This document shows positions 2 to 35,073 of a stretch of DNA of 46,049 bases, in pieces; position 1 is the first letter of the stretch; every line of letters begins with the position of its first letter. The stretch spans positions 1 through 46,049 of the forward strand of contig JAPDJO010000050.1 in NCBI GenBank assembly GCA_029259115.1. Reading direction: 5' to 3'. The stretch comes from Thermoplasmatota archaeon (GTDB lineage Archaea; Thermoplasmatota; E2; DHVEG-1; B18-G2). The translations under genes were made by a program, and so were the position numbers. The notes under the pieces are model-generated. The model had not been told where the DNA came from and did no database searches. It was given only the letters and a program-made list of their open reading frames with translations.

Positions 2-562
2 CAAAGACCAGAATACATAATAGTTGGTGAGATAAGAGGAAGAGAGGCATATGTTCTCTTCCAAGCAATGGCTACGGGTCATACAACTTACTCTACGATG
101 CATGCAGACTCTCCACAATCCTTGATACATAGATTGGAGGGTAAGCCGATAAACATACCGAGAGTTATGCTCCAAGCTCTCGAGGTCATAGCTATTCAGA
201 CAATAGCCAGAGTCAAAGGTAAAAGAGTGAGAAGATGCAAACAGGTTGTAGAGATAGTCGACATTGATCCAAAAACAAAAGAAATACTGACAAATGAGGT
301 ATTCAGATGGGATCCTGTTGAGGATACATTTATCTATTCGGGAAGGAGTTACATTCTTGAGAAGATAAGGGCATCGACAGGTATGAGCAAAGAGGAGATG
401 GTTGAAGAAATAAAGAGGAGGGTAAAGATACTGGAATGGATGAGAAAGGAAGGGATAAGATCTTACAAGGAGGTAGCCAAGATAGTTGCTGAATATGCTG
501 AGAAACCTGAAGAGGTTATGAAGAGGGTTGAGGAGGGGCTAAAGAAACATGCCTCTAAGTAG
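2..562 (+). CDS. Type IV pilus/type II secretion assembly ATPase (VirB11/FlaI/PilB-like), 5'-truncated by the window edge
   Basis: Frame is open from base 2 and reads QRPEYIIVGEIRGREAYVLFQAMATGHTTYSTMHAD (Walker B IIVGE plus His box). Followed by two TadC-like genes. Confidence 0.93.
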   Translation, partial: QRPEYIIVGEIRGREAYVLFQAMATGHTTYSTMHADSPQSLIHRLEGKPINIPRVMLQALEVIAIQTIARVKGKRVRRCKQVVEIVDIDPKTKEILTNEVFRWDPVEDTFIYSGRSYILEKIRASTGMSKEEMVEEIKRRVKILEWMRKEGIRSYKEVAKIVAEYAEKPEEVMKRVEEGLKKHASK

Positions 563-1454
563 ATATAAAAAATTCTGTTATAGGCTGTTCAGGGATTTGG
601 CGGAAAACAGTGTTAGTGAGGGTCTGAAAGAAGATCTACTTAAAGCGAATATAGACATACGACCAGCTGCTTATATTGCAACAGCATGGATGAACACAAT
701 AATCTCTATAATAGTGAGTGAGATAGCGATAGTCGCTTTACTATTTCTTATCTTACCTACACTCGGATTCAATATCATCAAGCTTTCATCTCCTTCCGCA
801 ATAGATGTTTTGATTTTTCTTGTGGTGATCATGATACCCTTTGGGATCGGATTTCTGGTATATTTTATTCACCTGTTATATCCAAAAAGCAGAGCAAAAT
901 ATAGAGGAAAACGAATAGATTTCTCCCTACCCTATGCGCTCAACTTCATATCGGCTATGTCAGCTGCTGGTGCTCCACCTCACGAAATATTCATAAGCCT
1001 TTCAAAGCAGAGTATATACGGCGAGGTTAGAGAGGAGGCAGCCCGAATAGCCAAGGACATGAAACTTCTTGGTATAGATGTTGTGACAGCATTGAAAAAA
1101 GCGATGGAAAGAACGCCGTCGGAACGCTTCAAAGAATTCCTCCAAGGAGCTATTGTTACAATAACATCTGGAGGGAGATTAAAGCCATACTTCATGGCAA
1201 AAGCGGATCAATATATGAGAGAAAATAGACAAAGACAAAAAACATTTCTCGAAACTTTGACTGTTATGGCTGAGAGCTATGTTACTGCTGCGGTTGCGGG
1301 TCCACTTCTCATGTTGATTGTTCTTCCCTTACTCATGATAGTTCAGGGTAGTTTTGGTCAGATTAAAGTACTGTATCCTATCGTTGGAATTATATTACCT
1401 CTGATACATTTTGGCTTCGCTATGGCTATTCGTACCATGACACCTGAGGTGTAA
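549..1454 (+). CDS. TadC/T2SS-F family pilus platform membrane protein
   Basis: Several TM helices; IDFSLPYALNFISAMSAAG, YGEVREEAARI, TPSERFKEFLQG and LETLTVMAESY are typical archaeal TadC segments. Confidence 0.9.
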   Translation: MPLSRYKKFCYRLFRDLAENSVSEGLKEDLLKANIDIRPAAYIATAWMNTIISIIVSEIAIVALLFLILPTLGFNIIKLSSPSAIDVLIFLVVIMIPFGIGFLVYFIHLLYPKSRAKYRGKRIDFSLPYALNFISAMSAAGAPPHEIFISLSKQSIYGEVREEAARIAKDMKLLGIDVVTALKKAMERTPSERFKEFLQGAIVTITSGGRLKPYFMAKADQYMRENRQRQKTFLETLTVMAESYVTAAVAGPLLMLIVLPLLMIVQGSFGQIKVLYPIVGIILPLIHFGFAMAIRTMTPEV

Positions 1455-1456
1455 AA

Positions 1457-2392
1457 ATGCCAAGATTCAAAAAATCGGGAAGAGAAAAAAATAAAGATAT
1501 TGCGTCAATCTCGCCAGTTTTGACCTTAGAAACTCTACTCTTCAGTAAAAGGTTTGCAAATGTGGTAACTGGTATATCCGTAACATCATCAACTGTACTC
1601 ATCATACTCGCTTTATTAAGTATACTAGGTGTTGTTCAATTACCATTGTCCGTAAACGACCTGATAGTTTTGGCCATTCTGAGCGGAACATCCATCTATG
1701 GTTTCTATCAGTATTTCCGTTCGAGATATATATGGAAGATAGACGATATATTTCCGGACTTTGTCAGAGATCTTGCTGAATCAAGGAGAGCTGGTATGAC
1801 CTTTACTAAGGCTATACTTATGGCAGCAAAGAGTAACTATGGTTTACTTACTCCTCATATTAAGAAAATGGCTAGGCAGATATCTTGGGGGGCGAGTGTG
1901 CATGAAGCGATGGATGAATTTGCAAAACATATAGGAACCCCTTTGGTCAAAAGAATCATATCTCTAATAAATGAGGCTACTAGGAGTGGTGGATCAGTTA
2001 CAGATGTTCTTATGGCTGCTGCCAATGATGCCAGGGAGTATCAGTTCCTTAGAAAAGAAAGGAGAGCAAGCATATCATCCTATGTTATAGTTGTGTACGT
2101 ATCATCTTTAGTGTTCCTTCTAATAACACTGATAATTATTAAACAATTCTTGCCTATGTTTAGTGGAGAGGCAATGACAGGTTTGAGCAGTGTAGTCACG
2201 GGTACATCCGCAACGCCGCAAATGCAAGAGATCAAGCTACTCTATTTCTATGCAGTGATCATACAAAGCATCGGATCAGGTATCGTTGCAGGAGTATTCG
2301 AGGATGGGCATTTTGAATCTGGTGTAAAACATGCTTTTATACTTTCAATAATTACCTGGCTATCATATAAATTATTTGTTCCTGGAATATAA
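1457..2392 (+). CDS. Second TadB/TadC (T2SS-F family) platform membrane protein
   Basis: FPDFVRDLAESRRAGMT, YGLLTPHIKKMARQISWG, SGGSVTDVL and C-terminal SGVKHAFIL; multiple TM helices. Confidence 0.9.
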   Translation: MPRFKKSGREKNKDIASISPVLTLETLLFSKRFANVVTGISVTSSTVLIILALLSILGVVQLPLSVNDLIVLAILSGTSIYGFYQYFRSRYIWKIDDIFPDFVRDLAESRRAGMTFTKAILMAAKSNYGLLTPHIKKMARQISWGASVHEAMDEFAKHIGTPLVKRIISLINEATRSGGSVTDVLMAAANDAREYQFLRKERRASISSYVIVVYVSSLVFLLITLIIIKQFLPMFSGEAMTGLSSVVTGTSATPQMQEIKLLYFYAVIIQSIGSGIVAGVFEDGHFESGVKHAFILSIITWLSYKLFVPGI

Positions 2393-2445
2393 AATCAGAA
2401 AAATATATTACTGTCATATGGTATGAGTAAGGAGGGGATGTAAAA

Positions 2446-5400
2446 ATGAAAAAAAAGACGATTGGTAGGTTGTATAAAGCGGTATCTCCAGTAATAGGGA
2501 CCATACTTGTGGTTGCTATAATCATATCTTCTATAACCGCTGTGATGATATGGGGCATACCTTACTTAGAAAGAACCAAGGCAGAGGCTCAACAGAGAGA
2601 TGTGTATCATCAGTTAGATCTTGCAAATGAGGCTATAAGAGATCTAATAAGCAGTGGTAAAGGTTCATCGAGAGAAATTAGATTATCCATGGAATCTGGG
2701 ACAATATCATTCGAAAACGAGCAACCAAGCCATGTCCTCATGTATGCAACGAGTAGCGACTACAATTTCTCTGTCGGTGGGTTAGATGATCTTGATAACA
2801 ACTTCATATTGAATATGGAAAAGGGAAGCGCAGATAAGGCAAATATATATAGATTTAATCCAGAAACATCTCTGCCCCCATATTATAGCACATCAAGCGA
2901 GCCAACAGCCTCCTACTATGGTAGTTTCTTGAGAAGAGTTCCTTTCAATCTCACCGATTCAAATAATACTGCTTACAAGATAACGAGCGGTAGTAGTACA
3001 CCACCTTCTCCTACGTCATTCACTTCAGAATACACATCGACAGAATATCAAAATGCTGGATATGATGATGACGAGAGCAATGCTTGGCATGGAGCAACTG
3101 GTACAGATGGCAAGTTTACAAATCTGATGTATAAATTCAAGATAGGAGATTATAATGCTAGTAATTTAGAAAAGATGGAGCTGAGATGGAAAGGCATAGA
3201 TACGCTCTCGGATGGAGGGTATCAGGGATTTTACATATGGAACCGATCCTCCAGTTCTTGGGAGCAGATAGGAGGAAATGGAGTCGCTTTGAGATTCGAT
3301 GGATTAAATGATAGAATCAATGTTCCGTGCAAGGAATATCTCAAGTATAAAGGAGGAAATTTAACCATTTGTGCATGGGTGTATGTTGAGGATGGAGAAA
3401 CTAATGGAAAAATAGTTTCTAAACCATGGAATGGACAAGGTCAGTACAATTATTATCTCTACCTCACTGGTGGAAAATTGGCACTATTTGTTGGTAACGG
3501 TACAGTATCCAAATATATAGTAGATCCTGATCCTGTATCTACAAAAGAATGGCATTACGTGACTGGAGTTTTGCACAGCGATGGGCTTATGGAGCTGTAT
3601 GTGGACGGAGAACTCAAAGCATCTGATAGCTATTCCATAACTAACTGGAATCCATCAAAAGGGGATCACAACATTAATCTGTGCATAGGTTCGCTTTACC
3701 CATACGGTTCTGGATGGGCTGGCAATGAGGGCTTTTCCTTTAGAGGTTTACTGCGTGACGTGTGCATATACAATGATTCTCTTGAGCAGAGCGAAATACT
3801 CCAGAATATGGAAGGGAACATGGTTACAGATGACTTACTAGGTTGGTGGAAACTTGATGATGCCCAAGGAACAGTTGCTCATGACGTAGCTAGACGCAAC
3901 GATGGTACACTTATGGATGGATGCAAATGGATAACAAACAGGGGAACATTTGCTTTGGAATTCGATGGAGTGGATGATTATGTGGGAGTGCCTGATTTAA
4001 ACCTTCATAATTCAAATAGTTTAACTATCGAAGCATGGGTGAAAGGCAACTCCTGGGCAGGTCAACCAGCTATAGTATTTTTTGGTGATGGTATATCGGC
4101 AGGTCAGTGGTCTATCGTTTTGTCGGTTTATAATAATAAATTTAGATTTGGTTTAGAATCCGGTACAACGGATTACAACACATGGGGTAATACAGTGTTA
4201 GATACAGGCGTTTGGTATCACTTGGTAGCAGTCAAAAATGGAACAGTAGTGAGAACATATATAAATGGAGTGCAAGATGACAGCGGAACTGCCCCTTCAA
4301 CAACTAATGATGTTACTAATCATCGAATTGGAGCAATGTATACCACGAACCCAGATTATTACTTCAACGGCACCATCGACGAAGTCCGTATTTACAACAG
4401 AGCATTAACCGCTGATGAAATTTATCAGAATTATCTTGGGAATGTTACAACTGCAGGCTTAGTTTCATGGTGGAAATTTGATGAAGGGTATGGAAATGTC
4501 CTGCACGATTCTGTTGGTGAAAATCATGGTAGGATACATGGTGCACAGTGGATTGACTACAAGAATTTCGCATTAAAATTCGATGGTGAAAGAGACTATG
4601 TATTGATTCCGGATTCAGATAGCCTTGATATTTCAGACAATATTACTGTGGAGACCCGCGTATGGTATGCTGGAGGGAGTAGCAAAACTGTATGGGCAAA
4701 GGATACAGATCATGACATAGGTTGCAACCTTTACGATCCTGCAAGCGACAATTACGCTCCCGGTGACGTAGTTAGATATGCAGTGCCAGAAAATGGAACA
4801 GGGAACTTAATGATCTACGAATTCACTGGAAGTATGGATTCTCACTATGGGAGAACCGGCATATATCTTCGACTAAAGATCGGAGAAAAACCACCGGTTT
4901 CAGAAGATATAGTCAAATTGGAAGTCTGGGATTTAACGGAAAATTGCAAAGTCTTGGAAGATTTATACAAGACTTCGGATTTTGGCACTAAAGATATAAC
5001 AAAATATTGGTATGGTTACCAGATAGGACATCATCCTAGATTTTTCGCATATAGTGGACATTCTTACAGAGTGGTTGTGTACTATTATGCGAATGTCCCC
5101 GTCTATATAGAAAGATTAACATTTGATCGGTATCATAGACCACCAGTAGAGAAGGGATCAGCGTGGAGATTGTATACGACTGGTGGAACGTTCCAGTTTT
5201 TAGTTTGGCATCCAGATGGCACCTATTCATATGCAAATTATTATGGTTTGACATCATACTGGAGAGGGTGGGTGGACTTAACCGCAAGTTACAGTTCTGT
5301 AGACGGGTTCAAATTATATGTCAATGGTAACGAAGTTACACCATCCTATGTTAGATTCTTGGGTAAGAGTATAAGAACCACATCCAGTCCAGTATACATA

Positions 5401-8400
5401 GGATCCGGTTATCATAAATTTCCGGGAATGGTAGATTATGTTAGGATATATAATAGAGTTCTAACAAGTAGTGAAGTAAAACAAAACTATCTTGAGAAAG
5501 TTACGACCGACGGGCTCGTCTCTTGGTGGGATTTCAACGAGGGTTACGGAAATGTAGTGCATGATAAAATCGGTGACAATGATGGAACCATATACGGTGC
5601 AGATTGGGTCTACACAGATGGAGGCTCCTTAGAATTTGATGGTGTAGACGACTACGTATCTGGAAAGGGAACAGCAACTTTTGATGATTTCACTATAATA
5701 GCTACGGTCAAGCAAGAAGGATGGCATGGACACCATGAACCTATCTTTGCGTGGGCTAACTCAACAGATGGTTTGTATCTGATATTGAGCAAAGATAAGT
5801 ATCTGAGAGTCGGCGTAGAAGTTAATGACAATTTCCACCATGAAGGACTGTACTACATAGGGGATAACTACATTGGGAAAGAAAAGATGTATGCGGCTAG
5901 ATGGGATGGTGATACTGGTTCAGTAAAGGTTTACATAGATGGTAATTCAGTTGGCGAATCCACATCATATCCAACTGGGTCGATAGACCTAAGCAAAGGT
6001 GTTAACTTCTGTATAGGGAAGAGCACAACTGGCTACTGGGGCGAAACTAGTGCAAGATTTTGGGGAAAGATATCGGAGATTTTGGTTTACAATAGAGCAC
6101 TCAGTGATAGTGAGATACAAGATATATACTCGGGCAGTATAGTAACGAGCGGTTTAGTAGCATGGTGGAGATTTGACGAGGCTAAAGGCATAACTTTAAA
6201 TGATTTTGCTGGTAACAATATAGGAAAACTCGTTAATGGCCCGGTTTGGAGAGGAGATATACCTCCCACAAACGAGAACCTCTATGTCGAAACAATTTTA
6301 GGCAATCTTTCAAACTACGTAGATGACTCTAACTATGTAAAAATATGTGTGGTTGGTGGTAAAGGAGAAAGTTTCACTTCTCCTTCATCCTGTACATCTT
6401 GGTACTATGACAGAAACAAAGCATATTGTACATGGATAGATGCCTATAATGAGGATGAGTACTATGTGCAATACAGTACAGATGGGGGAGCCACTTGGAC
6501 TAACGATCCCAATTCACCTTACTTCCCTGGAACAACGCAATCTGAACCAATATATTTCGGTCCAGAAAAACAGATAAAATTCAGAGTAAAATCTGTTAAA
6601 GATGGCATATCTTCAGGATGGTCAACCTCTGGTTACATATATACAGCTCCAGGAAAACCAGAGAATGTTCAGGCTGTCTCTGTGTCATCGGATTCGATAA
6701 ATGTAACATGGACAGACAACTCGAGTTATGAGTCTGGATATGTTATTTATAGATCTACAAATGGTGGAAATTATGAATTTTTAACATCTGTGCCAGCTAA
6801 TACAGAATATTACCTAGACACAAGTGTAACTGCTGGTAATACCTACACATATAGAGTCTACGCGTACAAGAGCATAAGTAATCCCAAGATAAATATATAT
6901 AGTGATCCTGGAAATAGTTCTCTCGTATCCCCAACAGAATGGTGGGATACAAACTGGCAGTACTATAAAGTCTGCAATATCGATACAAACGGGTATTCAG
7001 GATACTATCAGATGAGAATAAAAGTCGGTTACAGTTCGGGGGGAGACGTATCATGTGAAGGTCATTGCCAACCAGATTTTGACGACATCCGTTTTGTCGA
7101 TACCGACAACTCGACAGTGTTGCCACATTGGAAAGAGACTTATGTGGATTCTCAATTTGCCATATTTTGGGTTAATGTTTCAGCAGATGCAATGAGTGAT
7201 GGAAAAATACTCATGTATTATGGTAACCCATCTGCTACTGATGCAAGCGATGGAGATTCAACTTTCATATTTTTTGATGATTTTACAACAGATACAACAG
7301 GCAATTATAACATAGTTGCAGGAGATGATAATAAAGCCCACTTGGTAGGCAATAATTTCTTCAGTGTGCAAGATGGAGTTCGAATGATATGGAAGACTAA
7401 AATTACAAATTTTGATGCTAATCAATGGGGCTCTTATATAGGTTTTTATTATGGAGATGTGTTAAATTCTCCACGTTACATGAATAACAGATGGTGGAGT
7501 ATTATTAGTAGCGACACAGATGCTGGAGCAAGCGATAGTCCATTAACATTAGTTTTGCAGGCAGGTTCAGAAAAAGCAGGGACTGTTACAAAAGTAAAAC
7601 AGGTAATGCAATTTAGCTTGAATAGAGCATATTATTTTGAGCATTGTATGTCTCAAACAAAAATAAAAACAAGAGCCAGAGATGCTAATTTTTTGGAGAT
7701 TACATCTGCAGAGCTAACAACAGGAATAGCTGATATTTCCACACTAAACTATGCAATGATTATGCTATGGCATTGTAATGAAGATGGCACAGAGTGGGAT
7801 TGGTCATGGAATTCCGTAGAACAAGCAGTAAGAATGTACGTAAAGAGAGATGGTTGGAGTATAATAGATACACTTAGTGATTGGTTTGGTATTGCTAAAT
7901 GGGTTGATACAGAACCACGATGGAGCGGTTTCAGTAGTGAACAAACTCAACCAACAGTTCTATGCCTTTCAGGTGACACTCGAGTAGAGATGATTAGTGG
8001 TGAGTACAAGGAGATACAAGATATAGGAAAAGGAGACATACTTCTATCCTACGATCCTGAAAGAGGAGAGTATACATCATGCAAGGTCGTATCTGTAGGT
8101 ACATCTACCCAGCAAGTTTATAGTATAAATGATGGACTGTTGTACATCACGGATACCCATCCATTGTATGCAAGAAAAAGTGATGGGTATGAAGGCTGGG
8201 TTACGATAAATCCAGAAAAGATGAAAGAACATTATGGTATTAGTGAGGTTAGAAAGCTAGAGATCGGAGACAAACTTTATTGCAGATACGATGGATGGGA
8301 TGTAGAGGTAACGTCGATAGTACCTCAAGATGTGAGAGAGGTTTACAATTTAGAGTTAACATACCCATACACATTCTTTGCCAACGGAACACTTACTAGA

Positions 8401-9354
8401 GCTATGCCTTCTACTCACATGAGAAGCTCCTCTCACACGATGTATGAAAACTATGTCGAGTTGTCTATATATTTCATACAGAATGATTCTACTCCACCTT
8501 CTACAACCATAACTTCTACGGATCCAGTACTCGTTGATGGGAAAACAACCTCATCTACAATAACTTTCTACTGGTATAGTACTGACAATCTATGTCCGTC
8601 TGACGATCTTGTCTATTGCTGGATGCTTGTTGGCAGAGATTTGGATTGGAGCAATTGGACTTCTCAAACTTATGTAACATACACAGATCTGGTTCCTGGA
8701 GACTATGTATTCAAGGTAAGAGCCAAAGATCTTGCAGGTAATGTTGAAAGACCATCATCACTCAACACATTATCATTTACCGTATTGGAGGCTAGCGAAA
8801 CCATTTCGATATCTGCATCACCAGGAGTACCAACTACAGTGACTACTAGTGAACCCCTCAAAGGTTTTGTCCTCATTGACTTATACAACGGCAGTGTCAA
8901 CCTAGGTAAGATATGGCTCTTGACACCAGGAGAAGTAGAGTATAGAATACCGACGAGTGAGGGAACTTATGGAGTCTCTCTACTCGATGGAGGGATATCT
9001 ATGATATATCCTGATGGTAGCGCTATTGTAGGAGAGCCCATAATCTCCATGGGGAATTCCATGATCCATTTACATTTCATACATATGTTTGGTAGTACAT
9101 TCTCTTTCTCAGGTAGAGGTACGTGCAAATTCAAGTTTACGCTTTCTCAAAGCAAGATACTCCAGTATCGCGTACCTGTTTATAATCTGAGATTCCAGTT
9201 CTTTGGCGAAACTTCAGAGGGATGGACCAACTATTTCAAGATATATCATTCATTCAAAAAGATGGGAGAAAATGAGGTGGCTAAATTCAATCAACCTGTA
9301 AACTTGGTATTGGGATACTCATCGATAAAGGTTGAGGAGAGTGGGTTTGGATGA
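2446..9354 (+). CDS. Giant pilin-like adhesin (2302 aa): class III signal peptide, 4 LamG domains, 2 FN3, DUF2341, Hint domain, Y_Y_Y/Ig domain, pilin-scaffold C-terminus
   Basis: N-terminus KKKTIGRLYKA|VSPVIGTILVVAII; repeated ALxFDGxxDY...IDEVRIYNRALT...GLVSWWKFDEG LamG units; FN3 (PENVQAVSVSSDSINVTWTDNSSYESGYVIYRS); DUF2341 (DFDDIRF...FWVNV...MYYGN...FIFFDDF); CLSGDT Hint start. GGAGGGG SD upstream. Confidence 0.88.
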   Translation: MKKKTIGRLYKAVSPVIGTILVVAIIISSITAVMIWGIPYLERTKAEAQQRDVYHQLDLANEAIRDLISSGKGSSREIRLSMESGTISFENEQPSHVLMYATSSDYNFSVGGLDDLDNNFILNMEKGSADKANIYRFNPETSLPPYYSTSSEPTASYYGSFLRRVPFNLTDSNNTAYKITSGSSTPPSPTSFTSEYTSTEYQNAGYDDDESNAWHGATGTDGKFTNLMYKFKIGDYNASNLEKMELRWKGIDTLSDGGYQGFYIWNRSSSSWEQIGGNGVALRFDGLNDRINVPCKEYLKYKGGNLTICAWVYVEDGETNGKIVSKPWNGQGQYNYYLYLTGGKLALFVGNGTVSKYIVDPDPVSTKEWHYVTGVLHSDGLMELYVDGELKASDSYSITNWNPSKGDHNINLCIGSLYPYGSGWAGNEGFSFRGLLRDVCIYNDSLEQSEILQNMEGNMVTDDLLGWWKLDDAQGTVAHDVARRNDGTLMDGCKWITNRGTFALEFDGVDDYVGVPDLNLHNSNSLTIEAWVKGNSWAGQPAIVFFGDGISAGQWSIVLSVYNNKFRFGLESGTTDYNTWGNTVLDTGVWYHLVAVKNGTVVRTYINGVQDDSGTAPSTTNDVTNHRIGAMYTTNPDYYFNGTIDEVRIYNRALTADEIYQNYLGNVTTAGLVSWWKFDEGYGNVLHDSVGENHGRIHGAQWIDYKNFALKFDGERDYVLIPDSDSLDISDNITVETRVWYAGGSSKTVWAKDTDHDIGCNLYDPASDNYAPGDVVRYAVPENGTGNLMIYEFTGSMDSHYGRTGIYLRLKIGEKPPVSEDIVKLEVWDLTENCKVLEDLYKTSDFGTKDITKYWYGYQIGHHPRFFAYSGHSYRVVVYYYANVPVYIERLTFDRYHRPPVEKGSAWRLYTTGGTFQFLVWHPDGTYSYANYYGLTSYWRGWVDLTASYSSVDGFKLYVNGNEVTPSYVRFLGKSIRTTSSPVYIGSGYHKFPGMVDYVRIYNRVLTSSEVKQNYLEKVTTDGLVSWWDFNEGYGNVVHDKIGDNDGTIYGADWVYTDGGSLEFDGVDDYVSGKGTATFDDFTIIATVKQEGWHGHHEPIFAWANSTDGLYLILSKDKYLRVGVEVNDNFHHEGLYYIGDNYIGKEKMYAARWDGDTGSVKVYIDGNSVGESTSYPTGSIDLSKGVNFCIGKSTTGYWGETSARFWGKISEILVYNRALSDSEIQDIYSGSIVTSGLVAWWRFDEAKGITLNDFAGNNIGKLVNGPVWRGDIPPTNENLYVETILGNLSNYVDDSNYVKICVVGGKGESFTSPSSCTSWYYDRNKAYCTWIDAYNEDEYYVQYSTDGGATWTNDPNSPYFPGTTQSEPIYFGPEKQIKFRVKSVKDGISSGWSTSGYIYTAPGKPENVQAVSVSSDSINVTWTDNSSYESGYVIYRSTNGGNYEFLTSVPANTEYYLDTSVTAGNTYTYRVYAYKSISNPKINIYSDPGNSSLVSPTEWWDTNWQYYKVCNIDTNGYSGYYQMRIKVGYSSGGDVSCEGHCQPDFDDIRFVDTDNSTVLPHWKETYVDSQFAIFWVNVSADAMSDGKILMYYGNPSATDASDGDSTFIFFDDFTTDTTGNYNIVAGDDNKAHLVGNNFFSVQDGVRMIWKTKITNFDANQWGSYIGFYYGDVLNSPRYMNNRWWSIISSDTDAGASDSPLTLVLQAGSEKAGTVTKVKQVMQFSLNRAYYFEHCMSQTKIKTRARDANFLEITSAELTTGIADISTLNYAMIMLWHCNEDGTEWDWSWNSVEQAVRMYVKRDGWSIIDTLSDWFGIAKWVDTEPRWSGFSSEQTQPTVLCLSGDTRVEMISGEYKEIQDIGKGDILLSYDPERGEYTSCKVVSVGTSTQQVYSINDGLLYITDTHPLYARKSDGYEGWVTINPEKMKEHYGISEVRKLEIGDKLYCRYDGWDVEVTSIVPQDVREVYNLELTYPYTFFANGTLTRAMPSTHMRSSSHTMYENYVELSIYFIQNDSTPPSTTITSTDPVLVDGKTTSSTITFYWYSTDNLCPSDDLVYCWMLVGRDLDWSNWTSQTYVTYTDLVPGDYVFKVRAKDLAGNVERPSSLNTLSFTVLEASETISISASPGVPTTVTTSEPLKGFVLIDLYNGSVNLGKIWLLTPGEVEYRIPTSEGTYGVSLLDGGISMIYPDGSAIVGEPIISMGNSMIHLHFIHMFGSTFSFSGRGTCKFKFTLSQSKILQYRVPVYNLRFQFFGETSEGWTNYFKIYHSFKKMGENEVAKFNQPVNLVLGYSSIKVEESGFG
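7963..8403 (+). other. Hint domain within the giant pilin; N-terminal catalytic residues intact, C-terminal His-Asn replaced by Arg-Ala
   Basis: Block A CLSGDTRVEMISGEYKEIQDI, block B ITDTHP, blocks F/G VYNLELTYPYTFFANGTLTRA|M where VHN|C/S/T is canonical; 147 aa, no endonuclease. Confidence 0.87.
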
Positions 9355-11867
9355 GGAGGGATTTTGCAGTATCTCAAGTCATAGGCTTTTTACTATCTTT
9401 TGTGATAGCATCCTCACTTCTTGTTACTGCGATATTCTTCACTACAACTCTTGTTAGTGAAAGACTAGAGAGATCTGCAGAGATCCAAGCTACCGAGATA
9501 TTGAACAGAGTAGTTGATGCTGTAGTCGAAGCTGCTTATGTAAAACAGACTTATCCAAATGCAGATTATTGCAAAACATTGGATATACCCACATCCATAG
9601 GCGGTCACCAGTATTATATAGAATTTACAGATGACAAGATATATCTGAATTTCACGACAATGCACTCGTCCATAAACGTTTCAACATACAAGTTGGGAAT
9701 ATTGAACGTGGGTCTCTCTGGTAAGGTATACTCTTCTTCTGGTAAAGTAAAGATATATTGTAACAGGAGCCGATATCTTTACAAATTTGATTTTGGCACG
9801 GTTACATCTCCAAAATACATGAGAGAGCCATTTACTAGGGTAGGAGATAGCTGTAGCAACACCAATCCACCGTGGCCAACCCAATATGATGCTTTCAAGT
9901 ATAGGGTACCTATATTCCTTATAAACCCGAATACAGATCCTCAATACTCTACAGTTTATGATTTTCAGGTTAGGATTCAACTCGATCCGTCCACTATAGA
10001 TTATGACAAGATAAACAGCAATGGCTCTGATCTGAGATTCTATGATCCAACATCGGGAACCGAGCTGCCATACTGGATTGAGGTTTGGAAATACGGAGGG
10101 AGATCTTTTGTTTGGGTAAAGGTGCCCGAGATCTCTCATGATACTGGTAGGTTGATATACATGTATTATGGAAATAAAAAAGCCCAACCCAAGAGTAATG
10201 GATCTCAAGTTTTCTTACTCTTCGATGATTTTAACAGTAAAGACACGACTAAGTGGGCATTTAAAAATGGAAATGCGAAAGTGGAAGATGGTTTTCTCGT
10301 TTTTAATGGAGAATCTGCTGTGGTAAGTAAGACATTCACAGTGCCAGATGAATGTATAGTCTCAGCACTTGTATACTCGGTTGGAAATACAACAAGAGAG
10401 GGTAGCATATTCGTAAGATGCCAAGATCAGCTTCAATACTACAACAGTGGATATATGCTTTCTTCAGGTAATCTATCAGATCCAAGTAGAAATTTGGCAA
10501 TAATAAGAGACAATGCCACGGTAATAGCAAACTCTTCATCGAATTCTCCAATGTTAAGTGGAGTTGTCTACAAATTGGTTTTTGCTGTATGGAATGACAC
10601 ATACTTTGGGATGAGGCTGGTATATGACGATGCCTCTCAGGATTTCATTCTGGATGGAGATAGTTATGCAGCCTGTATAGATACTACTTATACTGGTGGA
10701 TATCTTGGGTTATGTGCAGCGAATGATGGAGATTTTGTAACAAAGTTTGATTGGATAATAGTTTACAAGGCGATAAATCAATCCATCAGCTACACTCTAG
10801 GTGGAGAGGACTCTAAATTTTTCTGGTGGGATGATGTAAGTGTTCTCTATGCAAGATATAACAGCAATGGAGGAGCATTGTACGGAGACTCTGTTTTTTC
10901 AAATATATCTCTAAATCCAAGCAGAAGTCCAACCACGCTTTACCTGAAGCTTCCAGATACATATCTAAGTACGTTTGATATGTTGTACAAATGGAGCTTT
11001 GAAGAAGATTTTTCAGGATCTGCTGATGGTAGATATGCCTATGAAGACGCTGGATCAGATCCCATAGAGATCCACGGGGCACAATGGGTTGAGGGTAAGT
11101 TCGGGACCGCTCTCTACTTTGATGGCTCAGATGATTATGCAAAAACGGTTTCCACAATCACAATGCCCAGAAACGTCACATTTGTAGCCTGGATAAAGCC
11201 GTATTTTGATTACAATGATGGTCTGAATCACGAGTGGTTGTACTGGAGTGCTGGAGGTACATACATGCATGCATATAAACATAGCAATGGAGAGACCTAC
11301 TTTGTTATAAATGGTCTGAACTCATGGCAGGGGGTTCATGCTGTCATTCCTTTTTCTTCAGGAGATTTCCATCTTTTTGTAGGTGTCTACAATGCTTTAA
11401 ATGATACCCTCCTGATGTACTGGGATGGAGAGCTTATAGGGACTGCATCGGGAAGCGGTCCTCTATCGACGAGTGCGGGATATCTCTATGTTGGATCAGC
11501 TGGCAGCAGTAGATTCTTCCATGGTATCATAGACGAGATAAGGATATATCAGAGAGCACTTAGTGGAGATGAGATCAGAGAGTACTATAATAAGGCAAGT
11601 CATCGAATATATAGTGTTTCTTTTGCTGTCGGTGATGAGGATAGAGATATAGATAATGAGTGGATAAATTCTTCTTACCTACAAAGAGGAAAAAAGATAG
11701 ACACCCTGTCTGGAGAATACAAAAGGGGATGGTTCTATGTAGAAGTTGATGATGGGATTCTTGATATCACATTCTATGATAGTGATTCCGGAGATGACTT
11801 TTACTGGAATATATGTATGCTTACTGTTGAGGAGGGGATAAGAGGGGTTAAGGGTGAGGGAAGATGA
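9351..11867 (+). CDS. Pilin-like protein (838 aa) with DUF2341, LamG and a split galactose-binding-like beta-sandwich
   Basis: RRDFA|VSQVIGFLLSFVIA class III signal; GSDLRFYD...LPYWIE...VWVKVP...YMYYGN...FLLFDDF (DUF2341); ALYFDGSDDY...IDEIRIYQRALS (LamG); ATGA overlap with upstream gene. Confidence 0.85.
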   Translation: MRRDFAVSQVIGFLLSFVIASSLLVTAIFFTTTLVSERLERSAEIQATEILNRVVDAVVEAAYVKQTYPNADYCKTLDIPTSIGGHQYYIEFTDDKIYLNFTTMHSSINVSTYKLGILNVGLSGKVYSSSGKVKIYCNRSRYLYKFDFGTVTSPKYMREPFTRVGDSCSNTNPPWPTQYDAFKYRVPIFLINPNTDPQYSTVYDFQVRIQLDPSTIDYDKINSNGSDLRFYDPTSGTELPYWIEVWKYGGRSFVWVKVPEISHDTGRLIYMYYGNKKAQPKSNGSQVFLLFDDFNSKDTTKWAFKNGNAKVEDGFLVFNGESAVVSKTFTVPDECIVSALVYSVGNTTREGSIFVRCQDQLQYYNSGYMLSSGNLSDPSRNLAIIRDNATVIANSSSNSPMLSGVVYKLVFAVWNDTYFGMRLVYDDASQDFILDGDSYAACIDTTYTGGYLGLCAANDGDFVTKFDWIIVYKAINQSISYTLGGEDSKFFWWDDVSVLYARYNSNGGALYGDSVFSNISLNPSRSPTTLYLKLPDTYLSTFDMLYKWSFEEDFSGSADGRYAYEDAGSDPIEIHGAQWVEGKFGTALYFDGSDDYAKTVSTITMPRNVTFVAWIKPYFDYNDGLNHEWLYWSAGGTYMHAYKHSNGETYFVINGLNSWQGVHAVIPFSSGDFHLFVGVYNALNDTLLMYWDGELIGTASGSGPLSTSAGYLYVGSAGSSRFFHGIIDEIRIYQRALSGDEIREYYNKASHRIYSVSFAVGDEDRDIDNEWINSSYLQRGKKIDTLSGEYKRGWFYVEVDDGILDITFYDSDSGDDFYWNICMLTVEEGIRGVKGEGR

Positions 11868-12307
11868 ACTGTAAGGCACAGTTCAATGTTATAGAAGCAA
11901 TAATCGCTGTTGGTATAGTGTTTGCAGCGATATACATAGTTTCTTCGATGGTCGGAAGCCCTGTAATAACAACAGCAAGCACAACAAACCAGTTGAAGGT
12001 ATTGGCAGATGATATTCTGAGATCACTGGATGCGAGGAACGAATCAATACCTCCGAGATATCATCATAGTCTCCTTGTCAAGTACATAGCTGAGAGGGAT
12101 ATCTCTTCTCTCACTTCCATAATAAACGATACCATTCCACCTACAGCTCTCTATAATCTCTACCTATATAACGCATCTAATCGCACCACAACGCTTCTAT
12201 ATCCAAGTAATGCCCTACCCCCAACTGGAAATGTTGCGAAGGCTAACAGGATGATAGTCTACGATGGCTATATCTATGAGGTTGAGTTGGAGGTGTGGAC
12301 GGTATGA
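11864..12307 (+). CDS. Small pilin-like protein (class III signal peptide, Gln at +1, Glu at +6)
   Basis: MNCKA|QFNVIEAIIAVGIVFAAIYIV; C-terminal YEVELEVW beta-strand typical of euryarchaeal minor pilins; ATGA coupling. Confidence 0.8.
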   Translation: MNCKAQFNVIEAIIAVGIVFAAIYIVSSMVGSPVITTASTTNQLKVLADDILRSLDARNESIPPRYHHSLLVKYIAERDISSLTSIINDTIPPTALYNLYLYNASNRTTTLLYPSNALPPTGNVAKANRMIVYDGYIYEVELEVWTV

Positions 12308-12798
12308 GACTAAAGAAACATTTAAATAATATAAGTTACAGAGTATATAGTGAGGAGAAAAATGCTGTCATACCTCATGCCATCATATATCAAGGTGAGG
12401 AGGGACAGATGATGTTGTTAACATCTGTCCTGATAGCAGTTGGAGTTATTCTTCTCTCTTCGATAGCTCTATCTCTGTCAAATATCGGCACCCTACTCCC
12501 TGTAGAAAAAAGCAGATCTTTACTTCCAGAGTATGAGAATATAAGAGACAAACTTGGAGACTATTTCGATGATCTCATAAGCGAGAACGCATCGGATATG
12601 AAATGGATAACCTATGTGTTCAACAGAGCAAAAGAGGAAATATTCTTCATAGAGTCCAAACACATGAGATACTTTGACGCTACTTTGGATAGAATCACCT
12701 ATCTAGCAAATGGTGATGTGGAGATAGTTGTGGACCTCTATCTGAGAGATGATGTTTCCTCTATAAATGAGGAGGTGGTATACCGAGTAAAAGTTTAG
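12304..12798 (+). CDS. Small pilin-like protein with an unusually long leader
   Basis: EEG|QMMLLTSVLIAVGVILLSSIALSL class III-type site; start placed at ATG 12304, which overlaps the upstream stop (ATGA). Confidence 0.72.
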   Translation: MRLKKHLNNISYRVYSEEKNAVIPHAIIYQGEEGQMMLLTSVLIAVGVILLSSIALSLSNIGTLLPVEKSRSLLPEYENIRDKLGDYFDDLISENASDMKWITYVFNRAKEEIFFIESKHMRYFDATLDRITYLANGDVEIVVDLYLRDDVSSINEEVVYRVKV

Positions 12799-12802
12799 TG
12801 AG

Positions 12803-12836
12803 GTATATAAATTATAATTAAGTTTAAATATTAATA
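12803..12836 (+). promoter_or_regulatory. AT-rich TATA-like tract; possible internal promoter for the double-Hint pilin gene
   Basis: GTATATAAATTATAATTAAGTTTAAATATTAAT in the only uncoupled gap among the pilin genes. Confidence 0.35.
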
Positions 12837-12861
12837 TGTGTATATGGAATATGGTGAGAAT

Positions 12862-15800
12862 ATGAGAAGGTTGTATGGAGATAGGAGGGGGGTTGCTTCA
12901 CCTTTAGAGTTCACAACAGCCTTTGCTGTATTCTTTGTAGCATTCGCTTTAATGGCGGTGTATGTTGGTAATGTCCTTGCACCTTTTGAAACAAACAACG
13001 CAAATTATGAAGCCGTAGCTATAGAGATAGCAGAGAAATTGGTGAACAATCCAGGGAGAACATTAAAGGGAAATGTTGAGTGGGAACTAGAGCCTGACCA
13101 GCTAGCATATCTTGGTTTAGCGATGCCAAAGCCAGTATACGATGTGTATTTCTATGGAAACGGAACCATAGAGGTGGTGGTTGACAAGGTAAATGAATAC
13201 TTTGATCTAGCAGTTGAAGACCTCTCATACTCCCCAAGAACACCAACAGTGATAGAAGGCTCGAAGATATACGTATCTTTCAAGGTAAAGAATCTTATGA
13301 GTGGTAATGCATCTGCGTTTAACTACACGGTCCAGATAGACAATTATGTTCAGTATCAGGGAAGATACAACAAGAGTCTAGCACCTGGAGAGGTTGCAAG
13401 CTTTGACAACATAGAGGCAACCGTTCCTTCCGATGGAAAGAGCTATTATGTCCTGATGGTTTCAATCTTCCCAGATGTTCAGGATGCGGATATATCAAAT
13501 AACGCAGCATCCCTAACACTAATTGTTGAAAGCGGAGGAGATACTGACACAGACATAGATACGGATATAGATGGAGATAGCGACTGGTTGGTGATAGAAA
13601 TAGATGGTCCAACGAGCATCTATGTTCCTATAAATCCGAGAACAGGTTCACAGACCGGTAGTATAGGTGGAAGCACATCATCTGGAGGAATAAAATACGC
13701 GAATGTGACCGCTACTTATACGGTTGAGAGATTAGAGAGGAACAGTGGAGCGTCTGTTGCGTTACCTGTTTACTTCTGGTGGACAGGTGGTCCCTCTGGA
13801 CCAGCGGAGGGGTTAGAACTCCGATCATATAAGGTTACCTTCACCAAGGACGATGAAGGAAATCACATGATATCCTGCAGTGCAAGAGATGCTGAGGGCG
13901 TGACAGGTGATGCTCGCTCACTACTAGTTCATGTCGAGGTTGAGAAGATAACTGTTGTGATAAACGGTCCTACCAATGTAGAGGCTGGCAGAATATATAC
14001 GTATACGATAACAGCATATCATAATGGTGAGGAATTCTGGTTAGCTGGCAGATCTCGAGCTTATGATGTGCATTGGTCAACAAATGGACTAGTTAGCGAG
14101 GGATTCAATGGAGCTTGGTACAAATGGAATGAACCAGGCAACTACACTGTGGCTGTGTGGGGTAAGATAGACTATAAAGGAGAGATACTTGGATATCCTT
14201 TCTACGCATCGATATCTGTAAGAGTAAATGGCTCAGATTCATCTGACACATGTTTCCTAGCAGGAACAAAGATACTGATGGCTGATGGAACAACTAAGAA
14301 CATAGAAGACGTTAAAGTAGGAGATCTTGTGAAGTCTTATGATACTGAAACTGGAGAAATTAAGGTGAGTAAGGTTACAGAGGTGTTCCATCACAGCCCA
14401 GATGAGATGGGAGATTACTATCTAGTGATAAACAACGAACTCAAAGTAACTCCGAATCATCCGTTCTATGTCAATGGAAAATGGATTCCAGCAGAAGAGA
14501 TAAAGGTTGGAGATGTGCTGGGAACAATGAAGGTTAAATCCATAGAGAAGGTTTACAAGAAGGTTCCAACATACAACATAGAGGTTGAGCCGTATCACAG
14601 TTACATTCTTGCATTCTCAAATCTAGTGGTTCACAATGGTGCAGCTTCTGGATCACAGACAGGTAGTGGCTCGGTAACACCTCTTTACAGTCTGTCTGTA
14701 GGTGTAACTCCTTCATCTGCTGGATATGTTGATATAACTCCAGCAAAGAATGGTTACTCAAGTGGAGAGACAGTTACTCTGGAGGCAAAGGCATATTCTG
14801 GATACACCTTTGATCACTGGTCTGGAGATGCGAGCGGAGATAATCCAAAGATAACTATAACGATGAACTCAAACAAACAGGTTACCGCTGTTTTCAGGTC
14901 AACTAGTGGAGCTGGAGCTGTACAGGGAACTCAACAATCAGCAAATGCTGTTCTTGTCCCATTGAACGGAGACATATCTGGAGGATCTGGAGGACCAAGT
15001 TTGGATCTCGGTGGGACTGCAGAATCTCTAGGAAATGTGTTAGTAATTACTGGAAACAAGGGAAGCACAAGCAATCCCTTCTACAGTACACCTGTAGGCA
15101 CCCAGCAGGTAAATGTAAATCCATTCAACGGTGGAGAGAACACATGCTTCCTAGCAGGGACAAAGATACTGATGGCTGATGGATCTCTAAAGAACATAGA
15201 AGATGTCAAAGTTGGAGATCTTGTGAAGTCTTATGATACTGAGACTGGAGAGATAAAGACAGGAAAGGTCACGAAGGTATTCCACTTCGGTGCTGACAAG
15301 ATGGGATACTACTACCTGAAAATAAATGGCAATCTAATGTTAACTCCAAACCACATGCTCTATGTCAATGGAAGATGGACTCCTGCTGGAGAGGTAAAGG
15401 TTGGAGATACACTCGGATTTGGAACAAAGGTTTACAGCATAGAGAAGGTATACTATGATTTCAGACCCGTTTATGATCTTGAGGTCGAGCCTTACCACAA
15501 CTACATGGTTCTCACCTCATCCGGTACAGTACTTGCCCACAATGCTACAGCATCCGCGATACTGATAGAGGGAGCCAGTGCTGATAGTGGAGACTCTCAG
15601 CTTGTAGACTCTTCAAGTACAGCAGGAATCGAGGAAGAGGCAAATACAGACGATGATGTAGGTGATAGTGATGATAGCGATATAGATGAGCCTCAGGAGG
15701 AGACAGATACGGAAGAGGAACTTGATGAAGATGTTCAGATCCTGCCGAAAGGTGACTCCACAACTTACGTCTACAACGGAACATCTGTAGATCCATCTGC

Positions 15801-16236
15801 AAAGATTTCAATAATGATATCAAGAATGTACGAGATGGTCCCGAAACCATCTGGAGGAAGTAATGACTGTAGATACAGGAGAATTGAGTATTCTGGGACA
15901 ACAACATCAGGAATACCTTTCCTTAGGGTACTGATGACATCAACTAAGGAAGTGAGCTACGCTACGATAATGCCTGAGAAGATAGAGGCTCTAAGATACA
16001 TACCTTATGAGAAGGCAAAGGATGCGTTACTCGGAGATGCTGGTATAAACGATGTTGACTTCATGATAAGAATAACGAGACTCGATGGATCAGAGATACT
16101 CAGCTATGGTGCTCAATACAAGGATTCATCAACAGCGATTGCAAGTTACAGTAGACAGATAGTGATATATCCAAACGAGATCCTAGAATACGACGGCTTT
16201 ATACCAGCAATACTAACGGTAACGGTATTCAAGTAA
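12862..16236 (+). CDS. Large pilin-like protein (~1124 aa): class III signal, CARDB, Ig/PKD-like domains, two Hint domains flanking an InlB B-repeat, acidic linker, pilin-scaffold C-terminus
   Basis: MRRLYGDRRG|VASPLEFTTAFAVFFVAF; GGTGA SD before ATG 12862; CARDB (DLAVEDLSYSP...DADISNNAAS); two CFLAGTKILMADG...HN units; YTFDHWSGDASG B-repeat. Confidence 0.87.
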   Translation: MRRLYGDRRGVASPLEFTTAFAVFFVAFALMAVYVGNVLAPFETNNANYEAVAIEIAEKLVNNPGRTLKGNVEWELEPDQLAYLGLAMPKPVYDVYFYGNGTIEVVVDKVNEYFDLAVEDLSYSPRTPTVIEGSKIYVSFKVKNLMSGNASAFNYTVQIDNYVQYQGRYNKSLAPGEVASFDNIEATVPSDGKSYYVLMVSIFPDVQDADISNNAASLTLIVESGGDTDTDIDTDIDGDSDWLVIEIDGPTSIYVPINPRTGSQTGSIGGSTSSGGIKYANVTATYTVERLERNSGASVALPVYFWWTGGPSGPAEGLELRSYKVTFTKDDEGNHMISCSARDAEGVTGDARSLLVHVEVEKITVVINGPTNVEAGRIYTYTITAYHNGEEFWLAGRSRAYDVHWSTNGLVSEGFNGAWYKWNEPGNYTVAVWGKIDYKGEILGYPFYASISVRVNGSDSSDTCFLAGTKILMADGTTKNIEDVKVGDLVKSYDTETGEIKVSKVTEVFHHSPDEMGDYYLVINNELKVTPNHPFYVNGKWIPAEEIKVGDVLGTMKVKSIEKVYKKVPTYNIEVEPYHSYILAFSNLVVHNGAASGSQTGSGSVTPLYSLSVGVTPSSAGYVDITPAKNGYSSGETVTLEAKAYSGYTFDHWSGDASGDNPKITITMNSNKQVTAVFRSTSGAGAVQGTQQSANAVLVPLNGDISGGSGGPSLDLGGTAESLGNVLVITGNKGSTSNPFYSTPVGTQQVNVNPFNGGENTCFLAGTKILMADGSLKNIEDVKVGDLVKSYDTETGEIKTGKVTKVFHFGADKMGYYYLKINGNLMLTPNHMLYVNGRWTPAGEVKVGDTLGFGTKVYSIEKVYYDFRPVYDLEVEPYHNYMVLTSSGTVLAHNATASAILIEGASADSGDSQLVDSSSTAGIEEEANTDDDVGDSDDSDIDEPQEETDTEEELDEDVQILPKGDSTTYVYNGTSVDPSAKISIMISRMYEMVPKPSGGSNDCRYRRIEYSGTTTSGIPFLRVLMTSTKEVSYATIMPEKIEALRYIPYEKAKDALLGDAGINDVDFMIRITRLDGSEILSYGAQYKDSSTAIASYSRQIVIYPNEILEYDGFIPAILTVTVFK
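13540..13584 (+). repeat. Asp-X dipeptide repeat linker (DTDTDIDTDIDGDSD)
   Basis: Degenerate 6-bp periodicity (gat act gac aca gac ata gat acg gat ata ...). Confidence 0.7.
14251..14637 (+). other. Hint (BIL-A/PT-HINT-like) domain 1; ends His-Asn, +1 residue Gly
   Basis: CFLAGTKILMADG...VTPNHP...TYNIEVEPYHSY...VVHN|GAASG; 129 aa. Confidence 0.92.
15145..15543 (+). other. Hint (BIL-A/PT-HINT-like) domain 2; ends His-Asn, +1 residue Ala
   Basis: CFLAGTKILMADG...LTPNHM...VYDLEVEPYHNY...LAHN|ATASA; 133 aa; first 38 aa are 36/38 identical to Hint 1. Confidence 0.92.
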
Positions 16237-21543: not shown

Positions 21544-21675
21544 GAAAGTTTTTTAATCTGAGTATATAAAAATCCCTCATCTTATCTTAAGAAGGCAATC
21601 AAAAAAGAGAAGGTATATTTTGTACCAATAAATTTATATATTGAGATAGATATAAATTTAGTTCGGGTGAGAGTA

Positions 21676-30679: not shown

Positions 30680-31342
30680 TGGAAGAAAGATATATCAGGA
30701 TATTGAAGGAAATCGCTCTCCTTGGGGCTATCGACAGAGAAATACCGTTATCATCTTATCAGTTATCCAAAATTATTAGTTGCAGTCAGCAATCTGCTTC
30801 CAGATATTTGATAGACATGGAGAAAAAAGGGTATATCGAGAGGAAGATAGGTATAAAGAAACAAAGAATAAGAATAACAGAAAAGGGGAGAGGGCTTTTA
30901 GAGAAGGAGTATCTGGATTACAAGAGGATATTCAGCAAAGAGAGGAGGATTTCGTTAAAAGGTAAGGTTATATCTGGACTCGGAGAAGGGAAATATTACA
31001 CCAATATAGAAGGCTATGTTAAACAATTCCTAAAAAAACTTGGCTTTAAACCTGTTCCTGGAACCTTGAATGTGAGGATATCGAAAGAGTATACTGATAG
31101 ACTAAAAGAGCTATCAGAGCTTGAAGGTATAGAGATAAGAGGTTTCTCCACCAAAGATAGATCCTTCGGTGGAGCAAAATGTTTCCGTGCAAAGATAGAT
31201 AACGAAGATGCGGTAGCTATTTTACCAAGCAGATCACACTATTCAGATATCTTGGAGTTTATAGCTCCTTACAAACTTAGAGAGAGGTTAAATTTAAGAG
31301 ATGGAGACTCTGTGAATATCGTTATAGATCTGGGTGGTGAAG

Positions 31343-31365
<23 letters not shown>
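30676..31365 (+). CDS. ribK: CTP-dependent riboflavin kinase with N-terminal HTH (RbkR-type)
   Basis: N-terminal SQQSASRYL HTH; GKVISGLGEGKYY, FKPVPGTLNV, LEFIAPYKLRERLNLRDGD. Confidence 0.93.

Positions 31366-35073
<3,708 letters not shown>

Follow-up and report, generated by a model that had tools for sequence, protein, structure and literature searches.

Known Hint domains include inteins, Hedgehog processors, and the bacterial intein-like (BIL) or PT-HINT domains that cleave bacterial secreted proteins. Here we describe three Hint domains within pilin-like proteins of an archaeon. The DNA that we analyzed, which we call the window, is the whole of contig JAPDJO010000050.1 (46,049 nucleotides) of GenBank assembly GCA_029259115.1 from a Thermoplasmatota archaeon; this genome is referred to below as G000 and the window is its contig C12. 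Positions 2–16236 hold eight genes, all on the plus strand, whose predicted products mark the locus as a minor-pilin/tip-adhesin operon of an archaeal type IV pilus from a Thermoplasmatota-like archaeon. The Hint domains lie in the first (p4) and the last (p8) of its five pilin-like genes, and we propose that they are probably active BIL-type autoprocessing modules that act after export, either cleaving or splicing themselves.

The pilus operon

The first gene (2–562), truncated by the contig start, encodes the C-terminal 186 amino acids of a pilus assembly ATPase (T2SSE, PF00437, E 5e-16; PilB3_C, PF23989) and matches the C-terminal part of a FlaI-like NCBIfam model. Two FlaJ/TadC genes of the T2SSF family come next, TadC1 with the N-half of the protein (549–1454; PF00482, E 3e-20; ArlJ/FlaJ positions 15–249 of 555) and TadC2 with the C-half (1457–2392; PF00482, E 6e-19; ArlJ/FlaJ positions 269–539 of 555). 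The five remaining genes, p4 to p8, look like minor pilins or adhesins. Their class III signals were read directly off the translations, and all five N-termini show a short charged leader, then a [GA]/[VQ] cleavage motif (the slash marks the cleavage site), and then a hydrophobic helix. From p4 to p8, the motifs are KA/VSPVIG, FA/VSQVIG, KA/QFNVIE, EG/QMMLL, and RG/VASPLE. Pfam assigns these N-termini to DUF7289/Pilin_N and DUF7266, with weak matches to DUF7288 and DUF7287, and places the fourth of the five (p7) in no family.

A preliminary description of this DNA had reported an ATPase, two TadC genes, and five class III-signal genes in one largely translationally coupled run, and this is what we observe: the domain matches and signal motifs agree, and the gene junctions are overlaps of 14, 4, 4, and 13 nucleotides and gaps of 2, 53, and 39 nucleotides. 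An ATPase with a FlaJ/TadC membrane platform (Pfam and NCBIfam) is thus combined with class III-signal substrates, and the genome also has a candidate prepilin peptidase, a Peptidase_A24 match above cut-off at G000:C4:26575–26919; these are among the components that characterize an archaeal type IV pilus. The peptidase gene lies in one of two further type IV pilus-like loci of G000 (C4:25–42 kb and C34:1–4.2 kb), whose pilin genes are small and free of Hints.

Architecture of the pilin-like proteins

p4 (2446–9354) is a DUF7289-type pilin-like adhesin of 2302 amino acids that contains the class III signal, the Pfam domains Laminin_G_3 (four copies), fn3, and DUF2341, Hint 1, the Pfam domain Y_Y_Y, and a C-terminal pilin part. 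Local hidden Markov models (HMMs) place its N-terminal and C-terminal pilin parts, p4N and p4C, at residues 3–110 and 1998–2299. p8 (12838–16236; 1132 amino acids) is likewise a pilin-like adhesin by Pfam and by comparison of related loci, with a pilin N part at residues 7–115, a C part at residues 1019–1129, and an insert of ~900 amino acids between them. This insert contains CARDB and an Ig-like region, Hints 2 and 3 with Flg_new_2 between them, and also an acidic linker; the Flg_new_2 domain (residues 620–688; 14695–14901; PF18998, E 6e-13) is InlB B-repeat-like. Between p4 and p8 lie p5 (9351–11867), an 838-amino-acid DUF7266-type pilin-like protein with DUF2341 and Laminin_G_3 (Pfam) but without a Hint, and two small pilin-like proteins whose operon positions are kept in relatives, p6 (11864–12307; 147 amino acids; weak DUF7288 match) and p7 (12295–12798; 167 amino acids).

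The p8 orthologue of the related genome G012 has only 240 amino acids (open frame of 249) and matches p8 residues 8–122 and 1018–1131 contiguously; the motif [KR][GA]/[VI]S..LE is conserved in p8 orthologues. An AlphaFold2 model of this small protein (mean predicted local distance difference test score, pLDDT, 72; predicted TM score 0.42) has N-terminal helices at residues 15–41 and 47–65, a low-confidence stretch at 93–154, and an alpha/beta C-domain at 158–239 with pLDDT above 90, and the ~900-amino-acid insert of p8 falls in the low-confidence stretch. It would correspond to the variable alpha-beta loop of bacterial type IV pilins. Fold searches with this model gave no convincing pilin match (best Foldseek E 0.11; VIA Z at most 4.1), so the pilin fold is assigned from the order of secondary-structure elements alone. 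A word-index search with p8 residues 1–465 also gave no match among proteins of 622–1981 amino acids.

The DUF7289 profile, which has 238 positions, is matched at positions 2–81 by the p4 N-terminus and at positions 98–201 or 109–208 by the C-termini of big p4-like proteins in relatives, so that the profile is split between the two ends of the protein. Most DUF7289 frames in the order have ~280–330 amino acids and match the profile without a break. From the split profile and the contiguous small p8 orthologue, we conclude that the adhesin domains and Hints jointly separate the pilin helix from the C-terminal pilin domain. Judged by these matches, p4 and p8 are ordinary small pilins whose variable region has been expanded with adhesin-type domains and BIL-type Hint modules.

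Hint domains of p4 and p8

All three window Hints have the Hint fold with Cys1 and a block B TxxH motif that is typical of the Hint/intein superfamily. Hint 1 (p4 residues 1840–1986; 7963–8403) has 147 amino acids and is of a long type, whereas Hint 2 (p8 residues 472–600; 14251–14637) has 129 and is of a short type. Hint 3 (p8 residues 770–902; 15145–15543; 133 amino acids) is a paralogue of Hint 2, with 69% amino acid identity and, over the aligned stretches with their flanks, ~80% nucleotide column identity. Hints 2 and 3 match PT-HINT (whole-protein E 1.2e-23) and the NCBIfam intein N- and C-terminal domains above cut-off. In Pfam, Hint 1 has only a sub-threshold match to Vint (E 8e-4), but its AlphaFold2 model (pLDDT 92.4) finds BIL and intein structures as best Foldseek matches (E 3.8e-11; TM 0.78–0.84), and the best 50 of its 64 PDB matches at E of at most 1e-3 are intein, BIL, Vint, or Hedgehog structures. 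A Hint profile search of the whole G000 genome found only these three Hints, all in this operon.

The preliminary description had placed three Hints within two of the pilins, which holds (one in p4 and two in p8), and had stated that none has an endonuclease or a Cys, Ser, or Thr at the +1 position, which holds as well. At 129–147 amino acids, the Hints are too small to contain an endonuclease, and neither a LAGLIDADG nor an HNH domain is detected by Pfam in the window Hint proteins; the +1 residues are Met, Gly, and Ala for Hints 1, 2, and 3, respectively. The flanks of the window Hints are low-complexity linkers of surface proteins. These flanks, the +1 residues, and the lack of an endonuclease led us to reject classical (class 1) inteins as an assignment.

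The residues available for catalysis differ between the two pilins, in agreement with the earlier suggestion that the two use different chemistry. Hint 1 has Cys1, TDTH in block B, a GW..INP insert, and an end that reads FFANGTLTRA, without a terminal His-Asn. Hints 2 and 3 both have Cys1 and TPNH and end in VVHN followed by Gly and LAHN followed by Ala (HN/G and HN/A at the junction, versus TRA for Hint 1). Terminal His-Asn without a +1 nucleophile is the mark of A-type BIL domains, and it is present in Hints 2 and 3 but not in Hint 1. Hint 2 also matches the "bacterial intein-like domain" of Clostridium thermocellum (2lwy) at E 1.1e-12 over residues 8–136 of 147. The nearest relative of Hint 1 is the third Hint of the p4 protein of genome G006, which also lacks the terminal Asn. 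Because Hint 1 groups with Asn-bearing long-type pilin Hints, its loss of Asn looks recent and common to G006.

Among Pfam families, Hints 2 and 3 score best with PT-HINT, and like bacterial PT-HINT domains they are Hints, autoproteolytic in the bacterial case, in large secreted proteins. They could then be pre-toxin modules that free a C-terminal polymorphic toxin, and related Hints (32–41% identity) do occur near the C-termini of Streptomyces proteins of ~1060–1620 amino acids. However, what follows the Hints in the present proteins is not a variable toxin tip but the conserved pilin part, p4C or p8C, which is common to small Hint-less orthologues. No immunity-like gene comes next, and the downstream genes are on the opposite strand. 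We therefore regard toxin release as unlikely, and give it very little weight.

Structurally, Hint 1 is closest to BIL2 of Tetrahymena thermophila BUBL1 (6y75/6tmm; sequence E 0.004), which has a similar C-terminal FFANG motif and, as in p4 and p8, small domains flanking the Hint. BIL2 is reported to form lysine isopeptides and, with no need for ATP, to transfer the ubiquitin-like domain on its N-terminal side to other proteins (PMC8616854). By analogy, an amine or hydroxyl on a different molecule (another pilin, a surface glycan, an S-layer component, or a substrate) might attack the Hint thioester in place of water or the amine of the protein itself, which we consider improbable. The result, equally doubtful, would be a cross-linked or covalently anchored tip adhesin made without enzyme or ATP. 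In p8, where one domain is flanked by two Hints, the Hint2-Flg_new_2-Hint3 cassette might conceivably dispense its middle domain as BIL2 does its ubiquitin-like domain, and this we think no likelier. Hint 1 and ~10% of the pilin Hints lack the terminal Asn, as Hedgehog-type transfer domains do. Hint 1 and the Hedgehog/Hog Hints have Cys1 and block B in common and no C-terminal Asn, and the latter only cleave or transfer the N-terminal fragment. The Hint 1 model also matches the Hedgehog structure 1at0, but Hint 1 has no sterol-recognition region.

Structural likeness within the Hint fold is generic, however, and inteins score nearly as high as BIL2. BIL2 is eukaryotic and cytosolic, is 22–24% identical, and carries a ubiquitin-like cargo of which there is none here. 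Most p8-like proteins have directly tandem or single Hints with no flanked cargo, and no conserved Lys or partner gene was found; the acceptor would be hypothetical. Also, BIL2 has a native terminal Asn, whereas Hint 1 naturally ends in Arg-Ala; the apparent lack of Asn in 6y75 is not natural, since the entry title describes a C1A-N143A mutant, and we discarded that parallel. Functional analogues of such conjugation would be the sortase-built pili and thioester adhesins of Gram-positive bacteria.

Recurrence of Hint-bearing pilins

A search with p8 found Hint segments in 26 of 41 related genomes. We compared 25 regions, which were chosen either by a DUF7289 N-terminus in a frame longer than 500 amino acids or by Hint matches, and were labeled with HMMs built from the window proteins. 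A conserved operon emerges in relatives, with TadC1, TadC2, one or two p4-like genes, sometimes a small p4 paralogue, and then p5-like, p6, p7, and p8-like genes. Fifteen loci were selected on frame size only, and the DUF7289 gene contains a Hint in 12 of them but not in G011, G107, or G044, where the gene is partial. Where both ends of the operon are in view, 13 of 15 operons have Hints in both the p4-like gene and the gene at the p8 position, and the remaining two have them in p4 only (G012) or p8 only (G023). None of the 18 p5-like genes, which have DUF7266 and DUF2341, contains a Hint, though 16 of them encode at least 640 amino acids.

DUF7289 is found in 96 of the 118 genomes of the order. 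A fused frame of pilin N part plus Hint is present in at least 22 of the 118, counted among 150 of 230 matches listed, and an operon with a Hint in the first and/or last pilin gene in at least 26, with all three families of the order represented; the second number consists of the 22 genomes plus G000, G006, G009, and G012, which have another arrangement. A wider scan used one genome per bacterial or archaeal species, was seeded by a single block-A pattern, and kept 75 loci. All 21 loci labeled Thermoplasmatales, Thermoplasmatota, or Thermoplasmata archaeon have a Hint in a p4- or p8-like pilin gene; the pilin N part is present as well in 20 of these genes, and in the remaining one only the C part is seen. 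The other 54 loci, from bacteria and one Nanoarchaeota metagenome-assembled genome, match in the Hint only, with 29–43% identity. Finally, a library of 1.84 billion proteins, searched as representatives of clusters at 50% identity, gave 819 Hint profile matches at E of at most 1e-30. Among the best 150 of these 819, there are 102 proteins with a pilin N part and Hints (72 of them p4N-Hint-p4C) and 41 Hint-only proteins.

In two of the compared regions (L022, G014:C33, and L028, G091:C60), two genes fill the p8 position. One encodes a 660-amino-acid protein with the p8 N part and a Hint ~55 amino acids from its C-terminus, a Hedgehog-like layout (L022:103–2082), and the other a 360-amino-acid protein made of a leader, a Hint, and the p8 C part (L022:2426–3505).

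Conservation of Hint residues and selection

Hint residues were tallied in two sets. In 65 Hints from 22 loci, Cys1 and the His are present in all 65, the block B Thr in 63, and the terminal Asn in 60; the penultimate residue is His in 47 and Ser in 12. The +1 residue is distributed as T13, A10, S9, D7, K5, G4, L4, V3, Q3, E3, C1, R1, P1, and M1. In the second set, 125 near-complete Hints from the 102 pilin-type representatives, Cys1 is present in 122, Thr in 124, His in 123, and Asn in 110, and the +1 residue is Ser or Thr in 16 of 125 and Cys in none. The preliminary description had asked whether terminal residues are conserved; the terminal Asn is, but the +1 position is free to vary.

The dN/dS of the Hint segments (Nei-Gojobori) in six close orthologue pairs is 0.144, 0.167, 0.237, 0.087, 0.069, and 0.357, which is comparable to that of the rest of the same genes (0.084–0.327). 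Four more distant pairs gave 0.43–0.59 or were saturated at synonymous sites, and Hint 2 versus Hint 3 gave 0.23. These ratios indicate that the Hints are under purifying selection and are not decaying. The preliminary description named sporadic occurrence or decay as outcomes that would count against it; instead, Hints occupy the same two operon positions in three families, and the six close pairs range from 0.07 to 0.36.

These data also bear on whether the Hints could be catalytically dead structural domains, or the locus an assembly chimera. Hint 1 lacks His-Asn, and the assembly (1.40 Mb, 98.7% complete) consists of 94 contigs with 5.5% estimated contamination. On the other hand, Cys1, Thr, and His are nearly invariant, and the architecture recurs in the 26 or more genomes and 102 cluster representatives given above. 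The remainder of the window contig carries archaeal housekeeping genes, including S8e, SRP19, NOG1, and RLI. Dead domains are thus unlikely, and inactive scaffolds and a chimera together seem to us barely credible.

A tree of 63 of the 65 Hints has two well-supported clades, a long and a short subtype. Hints cluster by host gene in this tree: the p4 label requires 10 changes as opposed to 21.3 when labels are shuffled, and none of 500 shuffles was as low, although kinship inflates such tests.

Host function or self-excising passengers

Instead of serving the pilus, the Hints could be selfish or neutral passengers, that is, mini-intein- or BIL-like elements that spread by duplication and recombination through the linkers of secreted proteins and have no pilus role. 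Such elements would cost little because they excise themselves. We consider this possible but doubtful. The following observations weigh against our preferred reading of active modules with a pilus role, and most of them fit passengers. The number of Hints per pilin ranges from one to five. Their placement varies: in most family-f2 loci and in the same-genus G004 the Hints immediately follow the pilin N part, whereas in the window, G006, G009, and G012 they immediately precede the C part. The conservation of position that the preliminary description proposed to test thus holds for the two operon genes but not within the insert. Tandem arrays, such as five Hints in the p8 protein of G013 or nine in a giant subtilase-bearing protein of G006, exceed what one cut would need.

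Identical Hint copies are found within the p4 gene of G012 and between two adjacent genes of G032. The synonymous divergence (dS) of the Hints differs from that of the rest of the gene in several pairs, with 0.71 versus 0.15 for L022/L028 and 0.32 versus 0.99 for L018/L032. Gaps of this size suggest exchange of Hint segments by replacement or gene conversion, and the identical paralogous copies together with the uneven dS point to duplication or exchange. The Hints also sit in low-complexity linkers outside conserved host motifs, and 41 of the best 150 representatives are Hint-only proteins. In the same genus, the operon type was not found among the matches listed for G001 (70% complete), G002 (86%), and G003 (96%). 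In addition, our operon counts are biased toward expanded loci, since regions were selected by large DUF7289 frames or Hint matches.

Many Hints reside in unrelated giant secreted proteins. The G006 protein (L014, G006:C62:159–8930; partial, 2924 amino acids) has DUF11, rhodanese, thioredoxin, and subtilase S8 domains and nine Hints in tandem, spaced 1–5 residues apart; most of these are followed by Thr and thus look like canonical mini-inteins. Further giant secreted proteins with long tandem Hint arrays are found in G013:C18 and G014:C1.

The variation in copy number and position fits mobile self-excising passengers as well as it fits a host function. Simple domestication, as first proposed for these Hints, is therefore not borne out, given the copy number, the shifting position, the identical paralogues, and the uneven dS. 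Other observations are harder to reconcile with passengers. The Hints have no homing endonuclease, and clean splicing is not assured because most pilin Hints lack a +1 nucleophile. Loss of an idle element from a linker need not be precise, yet the same two genes retain Hints in three families, and none of the 18 p5-like genes, though equally large, has one. In addition, they cluster by host gene, and in G000 they are confined to this operon.

Genes flanking the operon

Downstream of p8, two genes lie on the minus strand. The first (16240–18066) encodes a 608-amino-acid protein with a lipoprotein-like leader (..LSSLYGC) and weak squalene-hopene-cyclase-like matches only, and the second (18095–20683) a secreted protein with PKD and caspase (Peptidase_C14) domains that adjoins the pilus operon. 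A similar PKD and caspase protein is encoded upstream of the G012 operon (L011:1234–3357), followed by two C25 gingipain-like peptidase genes. Further along the window, a 1122-amino-acid protein (21667–25035) has four Flg_new_2 repeats, the same domain type as that between Hints 2 and 3, and its gene is followed by a serine recombinase gene (Resolvase and Recombinase domains; 25187–26008). This region of the window may be variable because the operon type was not found in the three same-genus genomes above. At 31334–35073, a PolX-PHP polymerase gene stands beside a gene for a bacterial-type NAD-dependent DNA ligase (LigA with BRCT).

Discussion

The reaction steps that we propose are read from the conserved residues, and their timing and consequence for the pilus are conjectural in the same way. 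Each Hint would fold after export and signal cleavage, and Cys1 would convert the preceding peptide bond to a thioester. In Hints 2 and 3, which end in His-Asn, the C-terminal junction would be cut by Asn cyclization. Because the next residue is Gly or Ala, these two should behave like A-type BILs, and excision would then yield mainly cleaved products, with the flanks sometimes re-joined by attack of the freed amine. Because it lacks Asn, Hint 1 should be limited to releasing or transferring the N-terminal fragment and would remain joined to the C-terminal pilin part. Overall, a single-chain precursor would become a processed, possibly two-chain, tip adhesin, in which the polypeptide between the pilin core and the displayed domains may be nicked, trimmed, or re-ligated.

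Two articles (PMC4031507, PMC7765530) describe A-type BILs as domains that have His-Asn, lack a +1 nucleophile, and reside in hypervariable regions of proteins that bacteria secrete; they act by thioester formation and Asn cyclization, with cleavage dominant and splicing possible through amine attack. According to one of the two, BILs are "spread among different bacterial proteins" (PMC7765530). The present Hints resemble the A-type BIL of C. thermocellum as mini Hints with Cys1, TxxH, His-Asn, and no +1 nucleophile, and Hint 2 aligns with it end to end. Both are found in the variable parts of non-conserved secreted proteins, frequently as several copies, and the variable copy number and position and the giant secreted hosts seen here are behavior described for bacterial BIL domains. 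The differences are that the hosts here are archaeal, that they are class III-signal pilin-like subunits at fixed positions of a type IV pilus operon, and that there are two subtypes, one with a conserved insert of ~15 amino acids (GWAAINP); any activity of the present Hints is a prediction.

The pilus machinery itself is of a known kind. Makarova et al. (2016, PMC4858521), in their census of archaeal type IV pili, describe euryarchaeal loci with two TadC genes and a pair of large DUF2341 proteins that are predicted tip adhesins. The present locus resembles these loci in its two TadC-like genes and its pair of large DUF2341-bearing proteins, and an ATPase and several class III-signal proteins are further common features. 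Neither Hint nor intein occurs in the main text of that article. In its supplementary tables the word "intein" occurs four times, and the two of these four rows that were listed concern non-pilus genes; the present lineage was not noticed among its genomes as far as these were seen.

The preliminary description knew of no characterized archaeal pilin that uses Hint domains, and this remains so in the literature that we searched, where we found no published Hint-bearing archaeal pilin (subscription literature was outside the coverage). The same search found no papers on DUF7289, DUF7287, DUF7266, or DUF7288, and none on Hint domains in Thermoplasmat- lineages. The operon joins a module of a known kind (BIL/Hint) to a machine of a known kind (an archaeal type IV pilus); the pairing is conserved, and our searches found no description of it.

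The related genomes hold a large natural set of compact, endonuclease-free archaeal Hints that, if active, tolerate non-nucleophilic +1 residues, a property of practical interest for protein ligation tools. To our knowledge, type IV pilins are matured only by prepilin peptidase and glycosylation. If the Hints are active, they would add to the assembly of the pilus tip a self-catalyzed step of nicking, trimming, re-ligation, or conjugation. Should conjugation, improbable as we consider it, prove to be the outcome, then the archaeal pilus would have a chemically reactive tip capable of covalent cross-linking or adhesion.

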